From Octopus vulgaris (taxonomy: Eukaryota), in NCBI GenBank assembly GCA_951406725.2, contig OX597822.1, positions 9,176,001 to 9,240,000 on the forward strand: 64,000 nucleotides of DNA. Direction: 5' to 3'. Shown here piece by piece: positions 8,485-33,594 of the stretch. Every line of letters begins with the position of its first letter. Within the stretch, counting starts at the first letter, position 1. The notes beneath the pieces are model-generated. The model was not told the origin of the DNA. It did no database searches and saw only the letters and a program-made list of their open reading frames with translations. The translations under genes and the position numbers were made by a program.

Positions 8485-8527
<43 letters not shown>
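8221..8527. repeat. (TAA)n/(CAA)n microsatellite, left flank of the R4/Dong-like element
   Basis: Direct reading. Confidence 0.95.
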
Positions 8528-8528
<1 letters not shown>

Positions 8529-11500
8529 GAACAATATAAGAATGGATGCTCGTCATGCTTCAAAGTCAACAAATCACGCAATAAACCGCATTGGTCGTTG
8601 CGCGGATTACAAAAGACCACGTACCCGAAAATTGAACCAAATTCTGATTGAAAAATCAGCTACTGGATCAAATCTTCCCAACACACAGGAGCTGGACGTA
8701 CCCCACAACCGGAATATTCCAACAGATGGCCATCCATGCTCATCACCAAATAATCAAAAGAAAAACAAGGAGAAATGGTCTAGGGAAGATAATAAAGAAC
8801 TTCTTGAGGCCTTCTACCATGCCATATATTTCCCCACAGATAAGTCTAGCACTGTACAAGCATACTTAAACTGGAGACAGAAACACCCTGAAGTAAAACC
8901 CTACATAGACAGTAATAAACTTGCCAACGTCAGAAGAAACATTATAAAAAAAATTACTGACTGAAGTAGAGATTGATCAAGTTAGACAAGCAATATCGGA
9001 TAAAATGAACGAAGCTGCAGCTAGAGAAGATAATACAGAGGAAATAATTATAGACCAGCCCAGGGCTGATAAAAACGAAGTGAGGATTGAAAGAGTTAGT
9101 ATTGGAATAAAATCTGGGCAGAAGAAAAAACACACAACGAAAAGGCCCCCTGGATTGACAGAATATCTACAGAACTGGACCCCTTAGAAGAGCAAAAGTG
9201 GGAGGGTGTCAAGGTAGAAGATAAAAGATCTGCTCTCAGGAGGTCAAGCAAATGGAAGTCTCCAGGAAAGGATAAAATTTCTAACTTCTGGCTGAATGCC
9301 TTCCCAGAGAGCCATGAACTGCTAACAGAACTGTACAATGATGTTTTGCAACACCCTAGTAGGATGCCTCCTTGGCTAGTTAATGGGTTAACATTCCTGC
9401 TTTCAAAAAGTGAAGAAACAAATGAACCAAAAAACTATAGACCCATAACCTGCTTAACAACTATGTACAAAACACTAACATCTGTCCTGACGGAATATAC
9501 CTATAGTTTTTTAACAGACAGCAGCATATTCCCTAATGAACAGAAAGGATGTAAACGTGGATCCTACGGCTGTAAAGACCAACTACTCATCAATAAGATG
9601 ATCTTAGAAGATTGTCACAAACGACACAAAAACTTATCAATAGCCTGGATTGACTATAAAAAGGCTTTTGATAGCCTACCACATAGCTGGATTAGGAAAT
9701 GCCTGGAAATGTATAAGATAGCACCTACTCTGCGAAACTTCTTGACTGTAAGTATGAGATCATGGAGAACCACACTAACTCTGAACAGTGACAATGAATC
9801 CCTAAATGCTGGTGATGTAAAAATTTCGTGTGGAATTTTCCAGGGTGACTCACTGTCACCACTCCTCTTTGTTTATCCTTAATACCTCTCTCAAAGCTGC
9901 TCAATGACGCGCAGTACGGGTATAAAATGTTTGATAAAAATATAAATCATCTCATTTACATGGATGATTTAAAGCTTTTTGCAAAAAATGACCAACAACT
10001 CAAGGGCTTACTACCGATAGTCAAACAATTCAGTGACGACATCAGAATGCAATTCGGCCTCGATAAATGTGTAAAAGCTACCTTTATCAAAGGAAAAATG
10101 ACAGAAACATCTAACGTTAACCTTGACCAGCAGAATGTCATAAAAGAACTAGACCCAGCGGAGAGCTACAGGTACCTAGGGGTAATTGAAGGGAACGGAA
10201 TAAGGCATTCAGAGATGAAGGAAAGGATCAGGAGAGAATGCTATCGAAGAGTGAGAGCAATACTCAAGACAGAGCTGAATGCAAGAAACAGGATCGAAGC
10301 GATCAATGCATTAGCCATACCAGTCGTGACTTACAGTTTCAATATTGTTAACTAGTCAATTACTGAAATATGTCAGCTCGACAGAAAAATAAGGAAACTG
10401 TTGACAATGCATAGAATGCACCACCCTAAGGCAGATACAGAGCGACTCTATCTGCCAAGAAAACAGGGAGGCCGTGGTCTTTTGCAACTGGCAATAACAA
10501 TGAAGATTGCTACAATTGGCCTAGACACCTACCTGAAAAACTCTGAGGACTGGATGTTAAAACTTGTCTCAAAACATGAAAACAAGAAAGCATCATACTC
10601 AGTCACAAAACAGGCAAAGGAATATCTAAGTGAATTCCGAATACAACCAATTTCGGAATTAGAGATAGACATACAAGAAACAAGCACAGAAAAAGCTAGG
10701 CGCATGAAAACCCGTGCCAAAATTGCGACCTTAGATATTCTGAATAATAAATGGCAAGAAAAACCTCTCAATGGCAAATACCCAAAGAGAGCGAATAATG
10801 CAGATGTTGACAAAGCCCTGACCCATCAACGGCTAATGGCCTCTGGCTTAAAATCTGAAACAGAGGGGTTTATCATAGCAGCTCAAGATCAATGCCTACC
10901 AACAAGAAACTACCAGGCCAACATATGAAAGAACGGCAGTTTCCCAACATGTCGTGTATGCCGACAACAAAATGAAACCATTGAACATGTTGTCTTCAAA
11001 TGCAGTCTTCTACCGCCTACAGAGTACCTCAGTAGGCATGATAGAGCTGCACAATATATTCACTGGGTAATTTGCAAAAACCTGGATTTGCCCCATGAAA
11101 AAAACTGGTGGGAACACAATCCACCTCCAGTGCTTGAAAATGACCACATCTCACTCCTCTGGAACTTCACCATTCAAACTGACAGAAAGATAGATGCAAA
11201 TAGGCCAGACATCATATTGAAAGACTTCAGACAAAGAACATGCCTCCCCATTGATATGACTGTCCCAATCGATATAAACGTATCTGTCAAGACCTACCAA
11301 AAACTGAGCAAATATAAAGATCTTGAAATAGAAATCAGCAAAATGTGGAAGCTGAAGACTAAAACAATATCTGTTGTCATCGGTGCCCTGGGAATGATAG
11401 CGAAAGGGACTGATTGCTACCTAACTCAGATATCAGGAAACCCCAAAATGGCAGAAATTCAAAAGATAGTGCTCATGGGAACTGCTCATATCTTACGTAA

Positions 11501-11727
11501 AATACTCTCTATGTAATCCCAAGGTTTAAAACAAACTTTTTTTTTTGTTTTTATTTTTTTTATTTTTTTTTTTTATGTATTAGACATTCACTAGTACAAC
11601 ACCAAAAAAAAACAAAATAAAAAAAAACCCAAATATATGGCACAGAACTTCCAACCTGTTGTCTCTTGAGGTCTCTGGGTGAGACTTGGAGCCAACTTGT
11701 ACAGACATAAAGCAAAAGTCAAACATA

Positions 11728-16546: not shown

Positions 16547-17867
16547 ATGTATAAGTATATATATATATATTTGCGTCGGTGTGTGTCTGTATCTATTTAA
16601 GCGGGTGTTTGCGTTTGACTTTCAATACTTAATAACCGTTGTTGGATTATTTATGTGTTACTCGGGTGTTACTCAGAGGTTCAGCACATACGGTCACATA
16701 AAATAAGATTTATACTGCGGTTGATTTAATCAAATAAGGCCATTGCATGGCGGCAGTCTAATAAATGAGACAACTTAAAGAATAATGTTTTTCTCTCCTT
16801 TAGTTCTTCTGTTTCTATTATTGCACAAGATACATCTTGGCGGTATTACTTACGGTTCTATGTTCTCAGTTCAAGTACCACCGAGAACAACTTTGCCTTC
16901 ATCTTATCTGGGTCAATAAAATAAGTACCAGGCAATGTAATCTGCAACCTCATCACCCGACAAAAATTTGAGGCCTTGTCCCTATAATAGAAAGAGTTAA
17001 TATTTTCTTAACAACTGCTCATTCTCTTTGAATTCAAATAACAACTTAGTCTATCTTTTTGATTTTGTGCTTCCCCCAAATACTGTAAGACTGAAATTCA
17101 GATTTCAGGCGATTAATCAACAAGAATAACTGGAAGCTAGAAATAGCAATAAAGTGTAATCTGAGAACAACTATATATATATGTATGAATGTATATTTCT
17201 TTAAGCTTGGTACGACTCTATAACACTGTCTCTCTCCCCCCTCTCCTACATTTCTCTGGCTTTCACACTTTGCACTCCACTTTGATCTGTCTCTTTCTCG
17301 CTCTCTCTCTCTCTCTCTCTCTCTCCCTCTTCTCCCACTCCTTTGTTCCTTGTTTCCCTTTCTTCTCTCTTCATCTGTCCCTCTCTTCCTCTCTCTTCTC
17401 CTCACATGTGACTGACTGACCGATTGCCGGTCATTTCGTGCTTAGCAGTCGTCGCAGAAAGACACATTTTTTCTCTCTTTGGCCCAAGGCATTTTTCTAA
17501 CGCGCCAACTCAAAGTTTACTCGTCCTGTTTAAAGACGCCTCTCTGTAACGTCCTATTTTTGTTATTATTATTATCATTATTGTTTTTATGTATTTTTGT
17601 ATTCTTATTCGTGTACATCCTCCGTTTTTCCGTCCTTGTTTTGTATACATTCGAGGCTTTCTTCCACGGAATCTAATGCGGTTGGCTTAGATTTTCCTTT
17701 GGGGCTGGCCAGATCGGAGCAATCTCAAGATTAATTAGCCGAAATTGCGAGGATGATCGGGTTCTTGACTGAAGATTGAAGGCTTCGAATGTCCCGTCCG
17801 TGTTTTCTGTATCGTCTTCTAAATGTTTTGCGTTCTTGTCCCAGTTCGTATTTTTGTACATATACAT

Positions 17868-19719: not shown

Positions 19720-20002
19720 CGTATGCATTGCATTGAAAACATGATCGTTATCTAGTCATGTTTTTTACCGGATTTCATTGTAGATTTTTCGAGAAATAAA
19801 TATTTCTAAATCCATCATCAAAGTTTCTAGACTCTCATTTTCTCGTCCAACAAATGAAGTGATGTTTGGGCGAATGTTACAGCTTTTATCTGCAAAGTAC
19901 CGAGTATAGGATCAGTGTTGACTTTATGACTGTAATATTGAACTTGACCATTGAACTTAAATGTTAAGACTCAGTTGTTTGCATTTGATTATGTCGAGAT
20001 TT

Positions 20003-20458
20003 GGTGGAAGCACTCCGTCGGTTACGACGACGAGGGTTCCGGTTGATCCGAATCAACGGAACAGCATGCTCGTGAAATTAACGTGTAAGTGACTGAGCAC
20101 TTCACAGACACGTGCACCCTTAACGTAGTTCTCGGGGATATTCCGCGTGACACAGAGAGTGACAAGGCCGGGCCTTTGAAATACAGGTACAACAGAAACA
20201 GGAAGTAAGAGTGAGAGAAAGTTGTGGTGAAAGAGTACAGCAGGGATCACCACCATCCTCTGTCGGAGACTCGTGGAGCTTTAGGTGTTTTCGCTCAATA
20301 AACACTCACAACGCCCGGTCTGGGAATCGAAACCGCGATCCTATAACCGCGAGCCCGCTGCCCTAACCACTGGGCCATTGCGCCTCCACCGTAACGCAGA
20401 CGAAATACCGCTAAGCATTTCGCCCGGCGTGCTAACGTTTCTGCCAGCTCGCCGCCTT
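20003..20458 (-). mobile_element. tRNA-derived SINE (20003-20388) abutting the head of a family B SINE (20390-20458)
   Basis: Minus-strand head GGCGCAATGGCCCAGTGGTTAGGGC...GGTTTCGATTCCC. The adjacent segment matches the family B head. Confidence 0.75.
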
Positions 20459-21289
20459 TATATCGAGAGTATATTGTCTGTATGTCTGTTTCAGCATTCC
20501 GCCGGATTATGAAATCCGGCATATATTATCACATATGCATATCCTTGTGGGGAAGTCTATATATGTGCAGAACTGCTAGATTTCCTATGAAGTGGTAAAG
20601 TTTAGTGTTTTTTCTCTTTATTGTAGGTGCATTGCAAATCGGAAAGGTTGTTGCCGTACATTCATGAACAATATAACAGTTGGAGTCGTAAACATTATAA
20701 ATTTCACTCCAACAATCACACTTCCAAACCAAAGCAGTGATTATCAACAGAATCTTACAACACACAACACAAAATTACATAGGAAAACATTATTGAGCAA
20801 CGCATCTATACTCGTCAGAATATCCTACATAAATAAACGAGCAATACTAACAACACTAAACTCTGTAAAAATAAATGTTCAATACCACATAGACTAGTTA
20901 CAAAAATTATTATACTCCTGAGAGATTATCTTGATATCTAACAATCAAAATTATTCAAATAGCACCAGTAATATGTACACTAATCACATCAGCCCCGACT
21001 GTAATTAAGCAGCATCACACTTCAAAGTTCCCTTCTTTTGACGATGAGAATTTGAAGGTCTAAACGCAGAGATTAAATACAATATTATTCCAAACAAATC
21101 GCGAGAAAATGGTGGAAAGGCAAGAAGAAATTTCGATTAAGAAAAGGAAAAATCATCGCGTTTTCAGTTTAAATGAAAATCTGTTCCTCTTGTCTAAAAA
21201 TATAAAACTGCAGAATAAAAAGACAAAAACGAAAAATCTACCACGCATTCTAGAATCCATTGATCAAAAACAAATAGCATAGCAATTCA

Positions 21290-21370
<81 letters not shown>

Positions 21371-21657
21371 TTCTTTGATAATATTATCAAAGAATATATA
21401 TAAGTATTGCAACTTTTTGTGCCCAATATTTAATGAACTTTTTTATATTTTCCCAAGATTTTCCCTTGTAAACTGCTTTTAACATTTTCTTATTATTATC
21501 AAAGAATGTATATATGCATTGTAATATTTTGTGACAACCAGTACCTGACACAACAAAGCTTTTTCTAAAAAGTAAATAAACATCTTTTAAAATTGCATTT
21601 TCAAACCTTCTTTCATATATAATTCTACTCGTGCGGTACCTTACAACTTCACTTTGT

Positions 21658-21689
<32 letters not shown>

Positions 21690-22024
21690 TCATAAGGACA
21701 GATTAAGTTGTCTAACTGCTAGAAATAAGAGTTAAAACCTTATTTGGACCACCAAAACATTCAAACATTTTCACTGGAAACAACAGATTCAACAGGATAC
21801 TAGCAGATAGAAAAATCTCTCACATACCAATATAGCATAAAGCTATATGTTTAATGGTTCAGGTATATATGAGGACCGGTTCCTGTTTCGATACAAAGAT
21901 CTTATCTGCTTCAGCACATTTTAAGCCTTTGAAATAATATCCGAATCTGCCACGTTGAAATCTGCTGACGTCCATAATTGCTTAGCGCCAAAATGCGGAC
22001 AGCCTCAGAGTGAAAAGTACTAAT

Positions 22025-22562
22025 CAGCGGCAAAATATTCAGAAACGAATATTTATGAGATATTAATATTGCTATTATTATCGAATGCAATATAAATAGT
22101 TGATAATAACAGAAACATTAATATAGGTGGTTGCAGACCTAACAAATGGCTGGCGTATTTTTTTGTTGATCTTACCATTATGGAACAGTACATTATGTAT
22201 ATGTGTTTGTGTGTGTGTGTGTTTGTGCGTGAGGCTGCGTGGGTGCGTGCGCGCGTATGTGTGCGTGTGTGTGCATCCATCTATCAAACTATCTGCATAT
22301 ATTCAAAAATCGTTATTGCAACAATGTCGCTGGCTTCAAGAAAATCAATAACGGTCCAAATAAGAGTTTTGACTCTTATTTCTTGCGGATAGACTCTTTA
22401 AAGTGTCCTTAAGATTAATATAATTTTAATTCTTTAGCTATATAATTCTATTTTTTAGGCCTGCACCCACCTATATTAATGTTGCTGTTATTAAATATTT
22501 ATATTGCCTTCGATAATAATATTAATATCTTATAAATATTCGCTTCTGAATATTTTGTTGCT
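22025..22562. mobile_element. Fold-back/MITE-like element with about 110-bp terminal inverted repeats
   Basis: 22025-22145 (GCAAAATATTCAGAA...TATAGGTGGTTGCAGACCTAA) is the imperfect reverse complement of 22453-22562. Confidence 0.7.
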
Positions 22563-22987
22563 TTATATATATGTGTATGTACTTATGTGCTTGCTTGTGT
22601 GTGTGTGTGTGTATGTGTGTGTGGATTCAATACATAGGAGCTACTAATAGTTTCATATGATGAGAAATACGTCAAATATATAATCATCAGGCACAAATAA
22701 CATATCAGTTGCTTTTGAACAGTCAGGTGTCAATTTATATGTATACATATTAACAATAGAATAGATAGGCACTTTATGGAAGAAAAACTTATTACATGGA
22801 GGGGAAAATAGGTTTACTTTAAATCAGAACCTAACAGTAAGGATATACTACAAAGTACTAAAATCCAGCCTTGCTACCAATAACATTCGACAGTCATACA
22901 AACGTTGAAGCAAATTTTAATCAATACGACCGATATAAACGTTGGCACAACGATTATATTGGCCGTAAAGATACAACAGTCACCAAC

Positions 22988-23368
22988 CTTACCTACTTGT
23001 ACTTGTGGCGACATTCACCCTGGGCGGGTTGAGTCGGCTTCTTCTACCATCCTCGAGGCATCTCGAACCATGGCAGCCCACGCACGACGGTCCTGCGCCA
23101 GTTCACTGGAGATAACGAGCCAGTCACGGTTCCATCGGCGCAGGCCGACCACCTACGGTCCCGTGAGCAAGGAGAGGTCCTCCTTGATCGTCGTAACCCA
23201 GGTCTTCAGCTGTCCGCCCGCGCGTTTCTGCCAGTTGGGAAATGGAGTTGGGAGAAGGACATCACGGCTCAGTTCACCCGCCAGACGCCTACATGCATGG
23301 CCAAACCACCGCAAGCGCCGTTGCAGAAGGACAGATGGAAGGGGCCGCAGAGACAATCACCAACCGGC
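22988..23368 (-). mobile_element. RTE-clade LINE 3' end
   Basis: Translation QRRLRWFGHACRR...KRAGGQLKTW...LAQDRRAWAAMVRDA, with a short tandem tail CAAGTACAAGTAGGTAAGGT. Confidence 0.8.
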
Positions 23369-23870
23369 TCAATATAACTAAAGGAGTCAGCTGACATGGA
23401 ACAAACTATGTAACACAAAACGAAATTACACAAGAAAGCATTTGTAGACAATACATATATACGATATGGAGTTTAAAACATAAAACAGATTAATAATAAC
23501 AGAAGCAACACTCATAATTCAATGCAAAGCTTAAATAAACACAGAGGCTGTATATTCTAGTTATAAATAAAATAGCCATCACACAGATGACGTATATAAT
23601 CTGTCGATGAAAATTCAAATTCCAGTGGAAATATCTACAGATTAATGTTAGATTATCGAATCTTACAGTCCCAAAACAAAATGCAAAGAACATAGAGAAA
23701 ATTATTAAAAATACGCGTTAAAAAAGATAAAATTAGATAAAATTACACTGATGTCTTTATGTCTAACAGAAAATCTGTTTACCATTTCTGTGTGTGTGTA
23801 TGTGTGAGTGTGTGTAAGAGTAAGTGAGTGAGGAAAAGAAAGTGGGAACATATCTGTATGCGTGTGCGTG

Positions 23871-23914
<44 letters not shown>

Positions 23915-24229
23915 TAAGTGAGTGAGGAAAAGAAAGTGGGAAGATATCTGTATGCGTGTGCGTGGGTGTGTGTGTGAATATGACCATATGGATTTGTCTA
24001 TTTGTCCTGCTTGTTTATTACCGTGTGTTTGCTTAAGTCATAATCTGAGTAAAGGACATAAAATGTATAGATGTGTGTGTGTGTGTGTGTGTAATTGCAC
24101 ACTTTGTCAACATTTTCCTAGTAAAAGATGAACATATTCGGTACAAAACATTATTGAGTAATCCTGCAATTTAAATTGTCTTTCAAGATAACTTGTCATA
24201 TTAAATATATATATATAGATATATATATA

Positions 24230-24630
<401 letters not shown>

Positions 24631-24834
24631 TACATACATACATACATATTGATAGATATATACGTATATATATATATATATATATATATAACATACATAC
24701 ATACATACATACATACATACAGAGAGAAAGAGAAGGAAGCATATATATACATACACAGGTATGTATTGATAATTATATTTTTGTCTATAAATGTATACAC
24801 ATGCGTAAGTGTGTGTGTGTGTCTATGTGTATGC

Positions 24835-24885
<51 letters not shown>

Positions 24886-25255
24886 TGTGTGTGAGTGTGT
24901 GAGTGTGTGCGAGAAAAAGAGAAGAGAGAGTAAGAGCCCGAATGCAAGAGTGAGAGCGAAAGCGAAAGGAAAGAACGCATGCGCAAACATTCTAAACTCC
25001 AACGTGTTAAGATTAATTGAAATTATCTGGAGGCATTGTTTTGAACATGAAAATACGTTAACTAACAAGCAGCCTGTTATCTATAAATACGGCTTTCACA
25101 TTAGAAAATGTTCAGATGGCAGAATCTTACAACATGCTGCTATTTTCTTTTATTTTGTTGTTTGTTTCTTCCTCTATTGATTTTTGAAATTGCAAAGCAC
25201 ATATACTGTCAACTGTGTATTTAGCTGTTAATAATAATAATAATCCCCCAAATGC

Positions 25256-26503
25256 ATGATTTTACTCGGAAGAAGTGAGTATCTATGTACTTACCTTCGT
25301 CAAAACAAGAGAGGTTCGTTGCAGTTACCAATAGCATCAATAGTCGAAATATATAAGTTGGGGAAGATACGGACGGTCATGATGCTGAGAGAATCGAAGG
25401 ATATGGAAATCAAGCGTAACCCACCAGAGGTGAAAACAGCCAGGAAGTGGAAAGCAGAAGCAGAAACTGACAACATCTTGTCTTCTCTTACACACAGAGA
25501 TATGGTGGGAGCAACGCAGAACCATCGGAAAGGATTTGGTTTTGGCGCGGATCAGTTCAGACCGTTTGCATGCATGATGCCGTGTGAACGCAGATCTGTT
25601 GTTAGCAACAGCGTCAAAACAAGAGAAGCAGAGAGAAGAGAGCTTCATTTGATCCGATGTGTTCATCAAGGTCAGATGACGAGATGGGAAGAACATGTTG
25701 TTGAGAGGAAGATAAGTTGGGATGAGATGTGGAAGTGGACAACATCTCGGCTGAGTTTCCTGATTCGTTCATCTTATGATGTTTTGCCATCACCTACGAA
25801 TCTAGTAAGATGGAACGTCTTAGAGAATGACGTCTGCAAATGTGGAAAAGTCGGTACACTAAAACATATTCTTTCCAACTGTTCGTTAGCATTGAACAGG
25901 TACACATGGAGGCACAACTTGGTCCTTAAGGTTATCTTCAATGCTATAAAGAATCAAATTCATCTCAACAACACTGAGGAAAAATCGTTAAAAGTACCAT
26001 CAAGAGAGTTCATTACCTTCGTGCGACCAGGTCAGCAGATCCGTTTCAAGAAGAAGACCAAGAAACTTCCTGAGAAAAATGAAAAGTGGAACGACTATTG
26101 GGAGGTAACTGCAGATTTACCTGGGTGCCAGGTTTTCTTTCCCATCCCAGTTTCGAAAAAACCAGATATTTTGATGTGGTGTGAAAGAAAGAAAGTTTTA
26201 AATATAGTCGAGCTAACGGTTCCTCATGAAGATAATATGGACGCCGCTCGAGCTCGAAAATTAAACCGTTATGAAAACCTCCTCGAGGAATATGAAGACG
26301 CAGGCTGGAAAGCGGAACATTTTCCTATCGAAGTCGGATGTAGAGGGTTTGTAGGACACAGCGTGAGACGACTGTTGTTATCGTTAGGCCTAACTCATCG
26401 TAAAGTCAATACCACCATGACTGATATCCAATCTACAGTGGAGAAGGCTAGCCACTGGATTTGGTTAAAAAGAGACAATGAGCGATGGCTAGAAGTATAT
26501 TGA
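25256..26503 (+). CDS. C-terminal part of a Hero-like retrotransposon protein (post-RT linker, CCHC knuckle, PD-(D/E)xK restriction-like endonuclease)
   Basis: Motifs ERKISWDEMW, RLSFLIRSSYDVLPSP.NL.RW, CKCGKVGTLKHILSNC, YTWRHN, KPD, ELTVPHE, K..RY, PIEVGCRGF, EKASHWIWLKR. The RT core is absent. Confidence 0.88.
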   Translation: MILLGRSEYLCTYLRQNKRGSLQLPIASIVEIYKLGKIRTVMMLRESKDMEIKRNPPEVKTARKWKAEAETDNILSSLTHRDMVGATQNHRKGFGFGADQFRPFACMMPCERRSVVSNSVKTREAERRELHLIRCVHQGQMTRWEEHVVERKISWDEMWKWTTSRLSFLIRSSYDVLPSPTNLVRWNVLENDVCKCGKVGTLKHILSNCSLALNRYTWRHNLVLKVIFNAIKNQIHLNNTEEKSLKVPSREFITFVRPGQQIRFKKKTKKLPEKNEKWNDYWEVTADLPGCQVFFPIPVSKKPDILMWCERKKVLNIVELTVPHEDNMDAARARKLNRYENLLEEYEDAGWKAEHFPIEVGCRGFVGHSVRRLLLSLGLTHRKVNTTMTDIQSTVEKASHWIWLKRDNERWLEVY

Positions 26504-26523
26504 GTTCATCATAACCAGCTGAT

Positions 26524-26634
26524 CTAGCAAGCGGGGCCTCATATCAGTGAGGGGGCCGGTGCGCATTGATGCCGTCGAGAGGTAGGCCCCGAAACGGCGC
26601 GCATTCTCTCCTGATGACCCCATACACTTGCTAG
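26524..26634 (+). ncRNA. Candidate non-circularly permuted (pseudoknotted) hammerhead ribozyme
   Basis: GCCG-UC-GAGAG (26571-26581), GGCCCC-GAAA-CGGC (26585-26598) and CUCUC-CUGAUGA (26606-26617). Stems I and III are fully complementary and adjoin consensus core nucleotides. Enclosed by CUAGCAAG/CUUGCUAG. Confidence 0.75.
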
Positions 26635-26698
26635 CTTCCGATATACGGAGCTTTTAACTGGTAGCACTTGCATGTGCAAGTTGTTTGCAAGATATTTT

Positions 26699-27150
26699 AT
26701 CTTTTACTTGTTTCAGTCATTAGACTGCAGCCATGCTAAGGCACCGTCTTGAGGAATTTTAGTCGAAAGAATCGACTCCAGTATATATTTTCCTACTTCA
26801 TTTTTTTTTTTTTTTGGTAAAGCAGCTATGATACGGAGATGTAAACACACCAACACCGGTTGTCAAAAGGTGGTGAAGAACAAATACATACACAAAGAGA
26901 GAGACAGACAGACAGACAGAACAGACAGACAGACAGACAGAACAGACAGACAGACATACACACACACACACACATATATATATATAAAGACAGGCTTCTT
27001 TCAGTTTCCGTCTACCAAATCCGCTCACAAGACTTTGGTCAGTCCGAGGCTATATTAGAAGACACTTGCCCAGTGTGCCACACAATGGGTTCAGAACCCA
27101 GAACTACGTGGAAGCGAAGCAAATTTCTTACTATACAGCCACGCCTGCGG
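26699..27150 (-). mobile_element. SINE family A copy (diverged)
   Basis: Aligns by eye to 6285-6719. Confidence 0.8.
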
Positions 27151-28034
27151 CATGCATGTATGTTTGTGCATATATATCTAGCGAGAACGCACGTTAGAGA
27201 TGTAAGCCTAAACAGATATACATACCTACACAGACTGGTCTATATACATACAGACACCCAAACTGCGGAACATTCTCAACCTACTGGAAGGCTCGGAATT
27301 CCTATTCAAACAAAGAGAGGGGTTCACAAGTAAAACCAACTACACTAGTGCTTCCGAGAATCAAATTTATGTTATAACTTGCTCAGGTTGGGGACATAAC
27401 TATATAGGACGGACAAGTATGACAGTGAGACGGAGAATAACACTACATTAGGCTCAGATTCGGCTTCCGCAATAAAGACAAGTTCCTTTGAGCGAACACA
27501 TAGAGAGATATGCAGGTATGATTCAACCAAACTTTATAGTTTCCCCATTTCCAGTGCAAAGAAACAAATTTCTAAATAGGAACGTTTAAATAAGGAAAAT
27601 TTGTTCATCAAAAAATACAGAACAAGTTTAAATATTAACACATAACCAACTTTGATCTCAGTATATTTTGATTCTTGATCACATACCCACCACTGTACTT
27701 ATTTCTTGTCACTACTTTAGCTTTTGAATTTTTGTGCATATTTATCCCCTCCCCGAAAGAAGAAAAATTACTTCCTCTGCCCCCAATAATTAAGATCACC
27801 AATTACCTATCCTTAGATTTTTCTAGTTATTCAATCACTTATTCATCAACTTCTCTACCTACAGCATGGACTAAAATGTTCTTAATTCGAAATTACAGTA
27901 ATTTCAATGTCATAATTAGCGAAAGCGAAACCGGTCGACAAAGACGAGATAAGATATATTTTTAAATATATTATAACTACGTAAAGTGTGTGCATTTTCC
28001 TTCTTTATTTTATATATATATATATATATATACT

Positions 28035-28065
<31 letters not shown>

Positions 28066-28068
<3 letters not shown>

Positions 28069-28248
28069 TCTTTTATTCTTTTACTTGTTTCAGTCAGTTG
28101 ACTGAGCACTTTCTTTACTTGAACAAAACGACCCGAAACTTGTTCTTTGTAAGCCTAGTACTTATTCTATCGGCTCCTTTTGTTGAACTCCCAAATTACG
28201 GGGACATAAACACACCAACACCAGTTGTCAAGTGATGGTGGGGGACAA

Positions 28249-28327
<79 letters not shown>

Positions 28328-28765
28328 CGACAGCCTTTCAGTTTCCATCTCCGAAATCCACTTACAAGCCTTTGGTCGGCCCGAGTCTATAGTAGAAGAC
28401 AGTTGCTCAAGGTACCATGTACTGGGACTGAACCCGGAACCATGTGGTTCGGAAACAGGTTTCTTACCACACAGCCACTAATATATATACACTCACACAC
28501 ACGCACACACACACACATAAACATACATATATATGTATGTGTGAGTATATTCTTTTATTCTTTTGCTTGTTTCAGTCATTTGACTGTGGCCATGCTGCAG
28601 CAGCGCCTTAATGGCTTTTTAGCCGAAGAAATCGACCCCAGGACTCATTCTGTATATGCCTAGTACTTAGTCTATCGGTCTTTTCACCGAACCACTAAGT
28701 TACGGGACAATAATCACACCAGCAATCGGTAGCCAAGCGATAGCGAGAGGACAAAAACAGACACT
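28066..28765 (-). mobile_element. Two adjacent SINE family A copies (28066-28478; partial 28550-28765)
   Basis: Align by eye to 6285-6719. Confidence 0.75.
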
Positions 28766-29658
28766 CATATAAGGTATGCATGTATGTCTGTATGTATGTA
28801 CTACGTAAGTACGTAAGCCTGCCGTCTGTAGACAATAGAACGGAAAACATATAATAGGAAACTGCTATAAGATATATTCCGTTTGGAGTGAGAATCGGTG
28901 CATTTGGGCAAAAATTCTCTTCACTCTGAATTATCTCCCTTTATATTTATAACTACTTTTCTCATCCTACATTACGAGTAACAGGAGTTCAATACCAGAT
29001 GATGAAGTTTGATAATCGCTTAAAGACTATTGAAAGGCGGTGTTCCTGCATGGCTGCAGTCATGTGACCACCAATTAATTGAAAAAATGAAATCAATGAG
29101 GCAGTTTGTCGCGTTTAACCGGCCCCATATGAGATAAGACTTGCAAGCGTAGAATCAAAGTGCCACGCAGTTCTGAATTCCACGTAACCCGATCCCTGAT
29201 ATAATGTAATATTTGAATCACACGTGATCCATATCAATTAGGTGGCATGGATTATGTAAGGATTGGTGGTACACCGTGTTCCATTAATGCGATGGGTTTG
29301 AGTTGAATGACTGTTGCGTTTGGGATAAAGGTTTACTCTGGTTTGCTTCAAGAATCTCTTGTATTATGAGAAGTAAACAAGACGACCTTATATGGTCTCT
29401 TGGATAAGGGTCCAAAATCCTCCCAAATGAAATCAAACCATGTGGAAAAGAGGAATGAACATTTTGAATTATCCGATATCCGCTACTATATAAACTGCTT
29501 ATACAAGAGAAAATATGATGGTGTCCCAACTCTAATGCATTTCGTTGGCTTGTTTGAGGAAGACAAAAACAACAACTTTATTACAAATTTCACCAACATC
29601 AACGTAGGACCACATTCAGTGATTTAATCATAACTAAGTTCAATGACAAGTTTAAGTC

Positions 29659-30535
29659 TACCTATTTCTTTACTACCCACAAGGGGCTAAACACAGAGAG
29701 GACAGACAAACGGATTAAGTCGATTATATCGACCCCAGTACGTAACTGGTACTTATTTAATCGTCCTCGAAAGGATGAAAGGCAAAGTCGGCCTCGGCGA
29801 ACTCAGAACGTAGCGGCAGAGGAAATACCTATTTCTTTACTACCCACAAGGGGCTAAACACAGAGAGGACAAACAAGGACAGACAAACGGATTAAGTCGA
29901 TTATATCGACCCCAGTACGTAACTGGTACTTATTTAATCGACCCCGAAAGGATGAAAGGCAAAGTCGACCTCGGCGGAATTCGAACTCAGAACGTAGCGG
30001 CAGACGAAATACCTATTTCTTTACTACTCACAAGGGGCTAAACACAGAGAGGACAAACAAGGACAGACAAACGGATTAAGTCGATTATATAGACTCCAGT
30101 GCGTAACTGGTACTTATTTAATTGACCCCGAAAGGATGAAAGGCAAAGTCGACCTCGGCGGAATTCGAACTCAGAACGTAGCGGCAGGCGAAATACCTAT
30201 TTCTTTACTACCCACAAGGGGCTAAACACAGAGAGGACAAACAAAGACAGACAAACGGATTAAGTCGATTACATCGACCCCAATGCGTAACTGGTACTTA
30301 ATATATCGACCCCGAAAGGATGAAAGGCAAAGTCGACCTCGGCGGAATTTGAACCCAGAACGTTAAAAGTATGAAAGTCAAAGTCGACCACGGCGGAATT
30401 TGAACTCAGAACGTAACGGCAGACGAAATACGGCTACGCATTACGTGCGGCGTGCTAACGATTCTGCCAGGTCGCCGCCTTACGTAACGGCAGACGAAAT
30501 ACCGTTAAGCATTTCGCCCGGCGTGCTAACGATTT
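29659..30535 (-). repeat. Head-to-tail tandem array of SINE family B (about 184-bp unit, 4 units plus partial duplications)
   Basis: TACCTATTTCTTTACTAC recurs at 29659, 29826, 30010 and 30194. A tRNA-like head occurs only at the right end (about 30400-30481, partly duplicated to 30535). Confidence 0.9.
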
Positions 30536-30942
30536 TGTCAAAACAAGCTTAAGTTTACCGCCATGCAAAGAAGTGTTGTATCATTGAAAGTCTTCTTGCA
30601 ACGTTAATTTCAATACTTCCCATGTTATACACAAAAGAAAACCACATCAAAACTATATGAGAGACAAAATTTTAGTGTTATCCATACAGTTCAGATAAGT
30701 ACATCGAATATCATAAAGTTTCCAATTATTTTAAATAGAAAATATAACGTGAAGGTATTGGTCTTCACTAAACATGATCAGATAAAATATGTTGAGAATG
30801 CACAGTATTAACTCTATAGTAGAACCGAAGTTTGTAGACTTTCTTCACACTGGTGTAGTACTTCTTAGGAATACAATTCTGTTGTGACACATTGTGTTTT
30901 GTTAACACTACATATTGTTGATTGTCAACGTTATTTTCAAGA

Positions 30943-31017
<75 letters not shown>

Positions 31018-31799
31018 AAGCTTATCCGTTTTAAAAACACATGAAATTGATGAAATTAAAAATGAAATATGATATCACGTTACATATCGCGTGTGTTGAT
31101 AACACAGAGTCGTCGGAACTCAAATACACTTCTCAGCCGAATATTCGGAAACATATATTAGATTCTACTTATTTTCGTAACACAGTTAAAATTATCGGTG
31201 ACGCACTTAAGTGTCATGGCACGCCGATTGGAATCCTCTATAGTTGCGATAGAACATACTTCAAGTTTCCAATTTAATGAGAAACTATCATGTAGATGAA
31301 TATAAATGAATACATGTATGAGTAAGTATATATGTATGCATATATGTCTATATAATACATATGTATAATATATGTATGGAAGCTTTACTGTGCAGCAGAA
31401 TAAATTTGCAGGCGTTATCAACACTTTATATAATGAAAAAAAACGCAAAAAAACTACCTTGATTTTTACGTACAATATCTTAACAGGCAGTAAAAGATGG
31501 ATCACTTGAAGTAGTTTCAGTCCTATGCTGAGATTTCACCAGCAGCTGAGTACACTTTGTAAATGTCGACGGAGTCCGCTGTTATTAAGGGCTAATATAA
31601 ATCGTATAGACGGATATACATGCATAACATACTCTTCGAAATTAGTTTGATTACTATATGACTAATGTATTAGTAAGTGTTTTGTTTCAAAGCTAGCCCC
31701 TACCATTAAATCTAAGTATTTTGTGAACATATTCTAGTGAACGGATATGAATATATTATAGGCAGAAGTAATCAACCAGACTAGTTTCAGACCGATCCT

Positions 31800-32870
31800 C
31801 TTCTTTAACTGAACACGGACACATTTCTTACAAAATCACAGAAATTTGGTGAAAGCAATGTTGTTTTTTCTAAATATCAATAAGGCTTTCACCCAGCGAT
31901 CTCATGGGAATCTCCGGTCCAAAGATACATTTCTCATCACTTGGATCAATTAATTTCCTTTCAGATCCTGATAATGTGGTCTATACAAACAGATCTCTCA
32001 CTTTCCCGAATTTTATCAATCCTAATTTTCTTTTGGTCTTAGATTTGTACTACACCAAAGATCTGCTAACGATCACGTCCAGCATACTCTTGCTCGACGT
32101 CACGTCGTCATTGTTCCCTAAAACCTTTCTAGCCAAGTGTTACCAACACGTGATACTTTGCTCCAAAGTTTCACTGGCTCCATGAAGAGAAACGCCAAAA
32201 AATATACCCCAATGGGACCATGACAATTTTGTATTCCTCAATGACCAAAAACTCAACTGCTGCTTATATCAATTAAGCATCATCATACCTAACATTTTTA
32301 ACGTAAGCACCATTCATCTAGAGCCCTAGCAACTGATCCATATACTAGGCCTAACAATCATTGATGGTCTATCTTTTAAGGCGACTGAGGAACCTTAGCA
32401 TAGCTAGAACTATATAGCAAATACTGGCTCTTCTCTTCAGAGCCAGAAAATACATCATCCTCAACTATTACTAATACTTTGCAAAGGACAGGCAAAATCC
32501 ACAATTGAATATGGCTCCCATACCAAGTAGGATGAATATCCTATACCGCATCCAGAGAAAGACCGTTTGATCAATTGGTATAAAGTCACTCGCAGTCTTG
32601 CTCCGATCTCTATCATCCATACATGCTATCTTACTCGCTCTATTTTCTACTGCCATTACAATGGATTTTGTTTCTCAAAGCTAGCTGCTTTCATAACAGT
32701 TCCGCGCAAATACTCTCGACTCATGAACTTTTCTGCTCCGTATATCCAGCACCACATGCTTGCACTAACTATGATGTATATTCCTTCCTCGTCCGAACGT
32801 TGCCTCCCCGTTGATAGTTTCTCCTTGCTCGTCTTTCCTGACTTCCTCGAACTGTAATAAGTTAAGCAGA
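31800..32870 (+). pseudogene. Heavily decayed LINE RT/3' region (CR1/L2/Jockey-group-like)
   Basis: Residual motifs FLNINKAF (cf. LDISKAFD), ILGLTI (cf. YLG), FYCHYNGFCFSKLA, and SFLVRT (cf. FFPRT). Many stops. Confidence 0.55.
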
Positions 32871-33594
32871 ATATAAAAACCATCAACATTAACGGTTACA
32901 GAGTGTCTGTTATGTCCATGAGCATTTGCCCTTCGTTCAGACCCAACAAATATATATGCATGTTTGTGTGCTTGTGTTAGCACGTGTGTTTGCAAGTGTG
33001 TGCTACTGTGTGTATGTGTGTGTGCGTGGTGGGTTGTACTTCAAACATGAAAGTAAAACTCGAAAGTTTCAGACTTTAATTTCAGACTTTAATTGTTACA
33101 TGAGACACGCAATTATGACACTTTCTTGTTGCTTTCCCATACGACTACAACAAAGAGCGTTCATTATTAATTATAATACATGAAATGTAATTAGACAGAA
33201 CATTAGTTGATAACTCTACGTATAGAATATATTATATTTAGATAAAAATTACACATAATGCTTTATAATTTCACAATAAGGATGAGTTTATACAGAATTC
33301 CACAAAAAAACTAGTACATCGGTTTGTTGCACAGATACATCACATGTAAAATATATTATGAAATTTTCCAGGGCGTATATCAGTATATGCTTTTTCAATC
33401 TGGTATCGATTTTATCAGATGCAACAGTATTCCTATGAGGCTCTGCAACCAACAGCAAATCACGCGAATAACATGCGATTACTGACAGCACTTCGTTCTG
33501 ACGATGGAATTGTGAATGTATAGAAACTTTAATGGACCAATGGATTTAGGAATGCTATTGTTCCAAATGAAACGTGATGAGCCAATAAGTAAAT

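Follow-up and report, generated by a model that had tools for sequence, protein, structure and literature searches.

The 3' UTR of a young HERO-type LINE with a restriction-like endonuclease (RLE), found at 26504-26694 in the window (the 64-kb stretch of Octopus vulgaris DNA analysed here), is predicted to form a split-core hammerhead, in which one stem II strand comes from upstream and the link between A9 and G10.1 is broken. Genomic copies of the element break exactly at the predicted cut, 26576/26577, and the element has therefore likely been copied from a closed RNA loop and not from the end of a linear message. In its full form our proposal states that the ribozyme would cut at 26576/26577 and set both ends of the unit RNA, that these ends would rejoin and that the circle would be copied from an internal start, a sequence of events that we consider about as probable as its failure. 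We hold slightly more tentatively, a shade below even, the extension to HERO LINEs as a group, in which circular RNA would be the replication intermediate and a four-block split-core hammerhead in the 3' UTR would generate it by cutting and religation.

The window copy (25307..26694, +) is 5'-truncated and begins at position 2348 of a 3737-nt unit derived from longer copies. It retains the C-terminal part of the single ORF (25307..26503, +), and its 419-codon open frame ends at the TGA stop at 26501-26503, just 5' of the 3' UTR. The 1112-codon frame of the unit matched RVT_1 (E 5e-19) and, weakly, zf-C2H2 (E 0.23), and with a CCHC knuckle and RLE motifs recognised by eye in the C-terminal part this gives a single ORF with zinc finger, RT, knuckle and endonuclease. 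The nearest solved proteins were those of R2, including a weak match to the R2 C-terminus; the RT is of the R2/LINE type and no match to a GIY-YIG endonuclease was found in the element protein. The RT motifs resemble, by eye only, two HERO rows in the supplement of PMC5678591 that we used for motif comparison (HERO-2_DR and HERO-1_BF), and on this likeness we provisionally assign the element to the HERO type. Named relatives come from Aplysia, Branchiostoma and a fish; no relative was found in the viral contigs searched.

In the host genome (2.8 Gb), at least 40 copies of the element tail with 99-100% identity were present among 2252 candidates. All 30 retrieved copies shared an end at 26694-95 and lacked a poly(A) tail. 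This genomic 3' end (26685..26694, +), which the element head follows in compound copies, is the putative internal start of reverse transcription. A target-site duplication with a match of at least 8 nt was seen in 10 of 42 simple copies, mostly in microsatellite sequence; one truncated copy (L015) has a duplication of 62 nt, and most copies have none. Contigs from four runs, whose RNA origin is only guessed, cover the element and are silent on its ends, strand and circles.

The blocks of the hammerhead core occur in the 3' UTR in the order S-G-C, with CUGANGA, GAAA, U16.1-H17 and stems I and III all present (all features on the + strand). Block S (26571..26582) comprises a stem III strand (26571-75), C17 (26576) and a stem I strand (26577-82), with the predicted cut between GCCGUC and GAGAGG at 26576/26577. 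Block G (26585..26598) contains a stem II strand (26585-90, C11.1 being 26590), GAAA (26591-94) and the other stem III strand (26594-98), and what would be block C lacks its stem II strand (26605..26617; stem I strand 26605-10, CUGAUGA 26611-17). Since the CCCC after CUGAUGA cannot pair with the CCCC before GAAA, a canonical stem II is absent, and we ruled out a canonical type-SGC fold. The strand that pairs with 26585-26590 and bears G10.1 lies separate from CUGAUGA at 26552..26557; a first G run at 26533-38 was also considered as partner of the strand before GAAA and rejected, as homologues point to the second G run at 26552-57. A stem III extension pairs 26559..26564 with 26599-26604.

The broken A9-G10.1 link is closed by two extra helices. 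A clamp helix joins 26524..26536 to 26618..26634 (26524-31 with 26627-34, and 26533-36 with 26618-21, the strand directly 3' of CUGAUGA), and hairpin H (26538..26551) stands between the clamp and stem II. The whole domain is closed by helix P0, in which 26514..26522 pairs with 26654-26662 in 8 of 9 positions; the long-range pairing of ACCAG (26514-18) with CUGGU (26658-62) noted in the initial annotation thus belongs to a longer helix with one mismatch, and two homologues (L139 and L140) have an equivalent helix of different sequence. The two further hairpins proposed there were correctly located and less regular than described: the first (hp1, 26634..26651; core 26637-40/26646-49), also found in L139 and L140, pairs as drawn only with one bulged U and shares G26634 with another helix, and the second (hp2, 26666..26681) has 6 pairs, a seventh of which would leave a 2-nt loop. 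The cut had been placed about 120 nt upstream of the element end with both of its sides contiguous in the genomic copy; the distance to the last element base, 26694, is 118 nt, and both flanks are indeed contiguous. The suggestion that the knotted fold could hold the two cleavage products together is likewise borne out by the model, in which 37 predicted pairs bridge the cut.

General folding tools did not single out this domain. Its folding energy is no better than chance (z = -0.82), and a search of 20000-33000 against Rfam returned no HDV-like or other family at E <= 1 except repeat noise. The RNAfold minimum is a rod that hides CUGAU, with stems I, II and H at a probability of at most 0.01; RNAfold handles nested folds only, i.e. 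no pseudoknots, and the rod may reflect a genuine off state or may result from leaving pseudoknots out. As a side observation, the loop of hairpin H (26543-26548) can pair with CUGAU in both the window copy and L139, and this pairing yields the inactive rod of the prediction; L140 resembles them in this loop, and the complementarity is not general in distant families. A role of this loop as an on/off switch is possible. As the A9-G10.1 link is broken, activity of the predicted ribozyme is not guaranteed.

The case that the 3' UTR motif exceeds chance is a comparative one. A core-only search, defined by stems I and III and the conserved motifs and requiring neither a non-G H17 nor a C before GAAA, parsed 38 of the 62 homologous 3' UTRs that were 150 nt or longer, compared with 6 of 1860 dinucleotide shuffles and none of the 62 reverse strands. 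With the length limit lifted, 39 of 70 metagenome loci parsed (79 loci were found, of which 9 were dropped because the match fell short of the C-terminus). Across 18 clusters, H17 was C in 9, A in 6, U in 3 and G in none, and none of the 40 parsed sequences had a G there. A C directly precedes GAAA in 17 of the 18 clusters, paired to a G of the upstream strand; the identity of G10.1 follows from the pairing rule, so that only C11.1 counts as independent evidence. A canonical stem II equalled the upstream pairing in none of the 18 clusters, the upstream pairing was better than in shuffles at p <= 0.01 in 11, and a flush hairpin separates the two upstream strands in 13. The outer helices are ambiguous in about 6 of the 18 cluster parses (L144, L154, L169, L177, L188 and L194). 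Core motifs and helices are thus kept with altered sequences across HERO families, and the pairings in homologues place G10.1 on a separate upstream strand, with the A9 end clamped by another helix. We take the predicted split-core hammerhead to be a real feature of the 3' UTR, judged by comparison of homologues, and cleavage to be its predicted activity.

A second HERO-type family (L345 and L341; G000:C2:57491400-57498900 and C19:70116200-70123700) in the same genome provides a further comparison. Its unit is 3916 nt long, it has 2378 candidates and it shares about 55% amino-acid identity with the first family in the best segments; the ribozyme design is the same, with a GUA triplet 111 nt from the end, and the partial tandem structure described below recurs. 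Two further divergent HERO-type families were noted in the host genome (L276 and L277), the former with a decayed motif.

The genomic copies appear to record the predicted cut. Among 696 copies (defined as those carrying an exact 21-mer), 11 have an exact 5' breakpoint at 26576/26577: ten are free-standing truncations that begin at the cut and extend over about 118 bp to the element end, one of them with an internal deletion, and the remaining copy (L364) has an internal deletion whose downstream end is the cut. The initial annotation had proposed to look for copy breakpoints at this position, and they are there as starts; no copy ends there, neither among 30 of the 39 pattern matches examined, all of which were point mutants reading through, nor among 30 unselected copies. 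Given the background breakpoint rate in these 30 unselected copies (0.0017-0.0024 per nt per copy), about 1-2 breakpoints per position (1.2-1.7) were expected, and the excess has a Poisson P of 4e-5 to 2e-2 depending on the assumptions, generous spans included. An initial purine-only search pattern gave 2 of 8 matches and suggested no enrichment; it was overturned by a wider, redesigned pattern, for which 10 of 16 matches start exactly at the predicted bond, and one copy added to these (L134) gave the 11. A control position 6 nt away yielded 1 truncation in 16 matches, and the 11-to-1 comparison gives P = 0.003 if equal exposure is assumed and 0.054 if 2:1 is assumed. The redesigned pattern misses copies with a T two bases before the cut; AT precedes the cut in 7 of the 11 copies vs 12 of 66, a difference to which the pattern itself contributes by its bias toward AT and to which we give no weight. 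In the second family, 4 truncations and about 3 deletions end at its own predicted cut among 25 matches, a count that has no denominator. Overall, about 98% of copies cross the cut site and only about 1.6% start there, and aligned copies have no run of untemplated bases at the cut. These breakpoints, indirect but exact to the site, suggest that the element RNA is cleaved at this bond in vivo.

Full-length copies have an unusual structure. Of 30 loci near the 5' end of the element, 14 reach it, and in all 14 that end directly follows the element's own 3' end, with a near-identical junction. The fragments in front of the unit measure 25-1974 nt; 11 of the 14 extend upstream of the cut, so that most full copies carry two cut sites. 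The initial annotation had asked whether the 3' fragment recurs at the 5' end of full-length copies: it does so without exception, and none of the 14 fragments begins at the cut. In none of the 14 were two or more complete units arranged in tandem. Both full copies of the second family also follow their own 3' end, and of the 34 metagenome loci that offer 1 kb or more of downstream sequence, 7 are arranged head to tail.

Several features bear on how such compounds arise. In 5 of 10 compounds, and in 5 of the 6 with fragments longer than 490 nt, fragment and unit at the same locus share rare variants, the cleanest cases being L234, where 4 variants occur in none of the 16-17 other units, and L238, where one does so. 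These shared variants point to one source template and against random insertion in front of another copy; they could also reflect gene conversion, or subfamily markers in three older copies. No clear target-site duplications were found around the compounds, and single-event insertion is therefore not proven by the flanks. The 3' flanks of the first family resemble the element head (T in 86 of 103, TC in 43 of 86, TCT in 27 of 43, TCTAAG in 4), and we considered this microhomology as proof of a continuing template. It was not replicated in the second family, where the likeness breaks at the third base (TCA in 2 of 20, TCC in 13) and may thus be an endonuclease preference; a TCCT-like flank preference was noted in that family. 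Separately, in L032:3541-3660 the final bases of the tail are able to pair, across the tail-head junction, with a segment of the head some 50 nt in, and the start site of reverse transcription may be structured only in tandem or circular RNA.

Cleavage chemistry, ligation and internal initiation are the steps that we infer from the conservation, copy structure and breakpoints. Two cuts would release a permuted unit RNA whose two ends together rebuild one ribozyme, and these ends would be sealed by the ribozyme itself or by a host ligase. Target-primed reverse transcription would then begin at the genomic 3' end, a point inside the permuted RNA about 118 nt past the cut. On a closed template the RT would pass the cut and might exceed one unit, giving a precise tail-head junction and copies of 1.x units, and on an unligated template it would halt at the cut and leave copies of about 118 bp. 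The conflict with 3'-end priming raised in the initial annotation is then likely only apparent, since it assumes that the genomic 3' end is the RNA 3' end. The 37 pairs across the cut may slow the strand exchange needed for joining the two ends of a unit.

These same pairs suit a different reading, in which the template is nicked and clamped: the helices would keep the ends adjacent as a non-covalent loop, and the RT would usually jump the nick and sometimes stop or misland upstream. R2-type RTs are capable of template jumping. Breakpoints that pile up at the cut, including deletions with their downstream end there (L364 and about 3 cases in the second family), agree with this reading, which likewise predicts 1.x-unit copies and shared variants. 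However, the near-universal crossing of the cut site free of untemplated runs would demand very precise jumping, and we consider a jumped nick unlikely, if still a serious contender.

A somewhat less probable alternative, also with internal initiation, is that the usual template is linear RNA that reads through partial tandem masters and stays uncut, and that a slow or protein-gated ribozyme mainly limits, destroys or decaps transcripts. For a Penelope-like element, hammerhead cleavage was dispensable in vitro and uncut RNA was the main template (PMC11167929), a result with which this alternative agrees; the predicted lowest-energy fold is the inactive rod, and the few cut-site starts would then be by-products. 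Against it, a daughter fragment copied from a linear 1.x-unit RNA cannot exceed that of its parent, so that fragments should shrink, whereas copies more than 99% identical to the family carry front fragments of 1675 and 1974 nt. Long fragments in such young copies imply that regeneration needs a loop or a jump, and the near-identical junctions in 14/14 full copies also speak against a linear template. LINE 3' UTRs require a protein-binding structure, and the fold might be derived from a hammerhead yet non-catalytic, serving to bind the element protein, with breakpoints caused by RT stalling at a strong structure. This would fit the detachment of stem II from CUGAUGA and the lack of a match to Rfam hammerhead models. 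We consider it very improbable: the catalytic nucleotides, C11.1 and the absence of G at position 17 are conserved although the stems vary, and in two families the breakpoints coincide with the very bond predicted to be scissile.

The type-SGC hammerheads (HRIMA-1 and variants; Eckert et al. 2023, PMC10085705) have in common with our candidate the S-G-C order, pseudoknotted stems I and III, a link of 2-3 nt between stems I and II and a core of CUGANGA, GAAA and UH; type-SGC has an extra helix joining stems I and II, a role that the clamp helix may take here. They differ in that stem II of the element is not formed from the strand 3' of CUGANGA and in the insertion of the clamp helix and a hairpin at A9-G10.1. 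Eckert et al. assumed this link to be uninterruptible and required it in their search patterns, and in all hammerheads known to them it is continuous or nearly so, with an insertion of 0-2 nt (PMC10085705). They found no SGC form in the genome of any known organism, whereas the SGC-order core predicted here resides in an animal retrotransposon. The predicted ribozyme would act as a hammerhead does, yet it lacks a feature by which the classical type and the SGC type are both defined. Searches of mainly open-access literature found no such motif, no HERO ribozyme and no HERO partial tandem.

The replication logic would resemble the proposal for Penelope-like elements, on a protein that is an RLE LINE. 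Cervera and de la Pena (2014, PMC4209133) put forward a circle model for those elements, whose hammerheads lie in pseudo-LTRs, and for one of them reverse transcription was demonstrated in vitro to start internally (Frangieh et al. 2024, PMC11167929). Partial head-to-tail copies, a hammerhead in the repeat and AT-rich targets are common to both, and the internal RT start and proposed circular template resemble our model for the HERO-type element (PMC4209133, PMC11167929). The element differs in its LINE-type RT and C-terminal RLE in place of GIY-YIG, in its monomeric knotted hammerhead in the 3' UTR and in genomic breakpoints that match the cut. With the HERO clade (PMC4640811, PMC10294476, supplement of PMC5678591) it shares a single ORF with an N-terminal zinc finger, RT, CCHC knuckle and RLE, as well as a weak target specificity near microsatellites (PMC4640811, PMC10294476). 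Among other non-LTR elements, R2, L1Tc and RTE have 5' HDV-like ribozymes (PMC6765202) and Schistosoma elements have twister variants (PMC8501958). Ribozyme processing of the RNA would be common ground with these elements, and the class and position of the ribozyme differ: the R2 cut forms the 5' end of a colinear RNA (PMC6765202), whereas the cut predicted here is 118 nt short of the genomic 3' end. Retrozymes (PMC4918200, PMC7229834, bioRxiv 10.64898/2026.07.22.740005) also have hammerhead-cut repeats that circularise, as proposed here, but are small and non-coding with canonical hammerheads, whereas the element is autonomous and 3.7 kb long (PMC4918200, PMC7229834).

If the proposal is true, an autonomous RLE retrotransposon would start target-primed reverse transcription internally and continue it as a rolling circle. 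Of the five clades of RLE LINEs, one would then depart from the R2 model, in which a linear RNA is copied from its 3' end. The hammerhead would have a wiring beyond the six permutations thought possible, breaking the block rule used for enumeration and searches, and this split-core topology would be present in animal genomes at thousands of copies. The 2014 circle model for Penelope-like elements would also become testable in a young HERO-type family with intact frames, in which the genome records the cut. On a practical matter, RLE proteins are under development for gene insertion, and a relative that starts internally on closed RNA would be of interest there.

Across the whole window, the S-G-C core parses at 2 of 27 CUGANGA sites. 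A second, sequence-unrelated S-G-C hammerhead-like core was observed in another repeat at 17650-17795 (+), with a predicted cut after 17724, an upstream stem II strand and a likely clamp helix. A frame-broken non-LTR element at about 8500-11516 (+), with RVT_1 and a C-terminal RLE-like region, looks R4/Dong-like by eye, and the core search behind it found no split-core ribozyme. Finally, a GC-rich fragment at 22960-23390 (-) resembles, again by eye, the 3' end of an RTE-type LINE.
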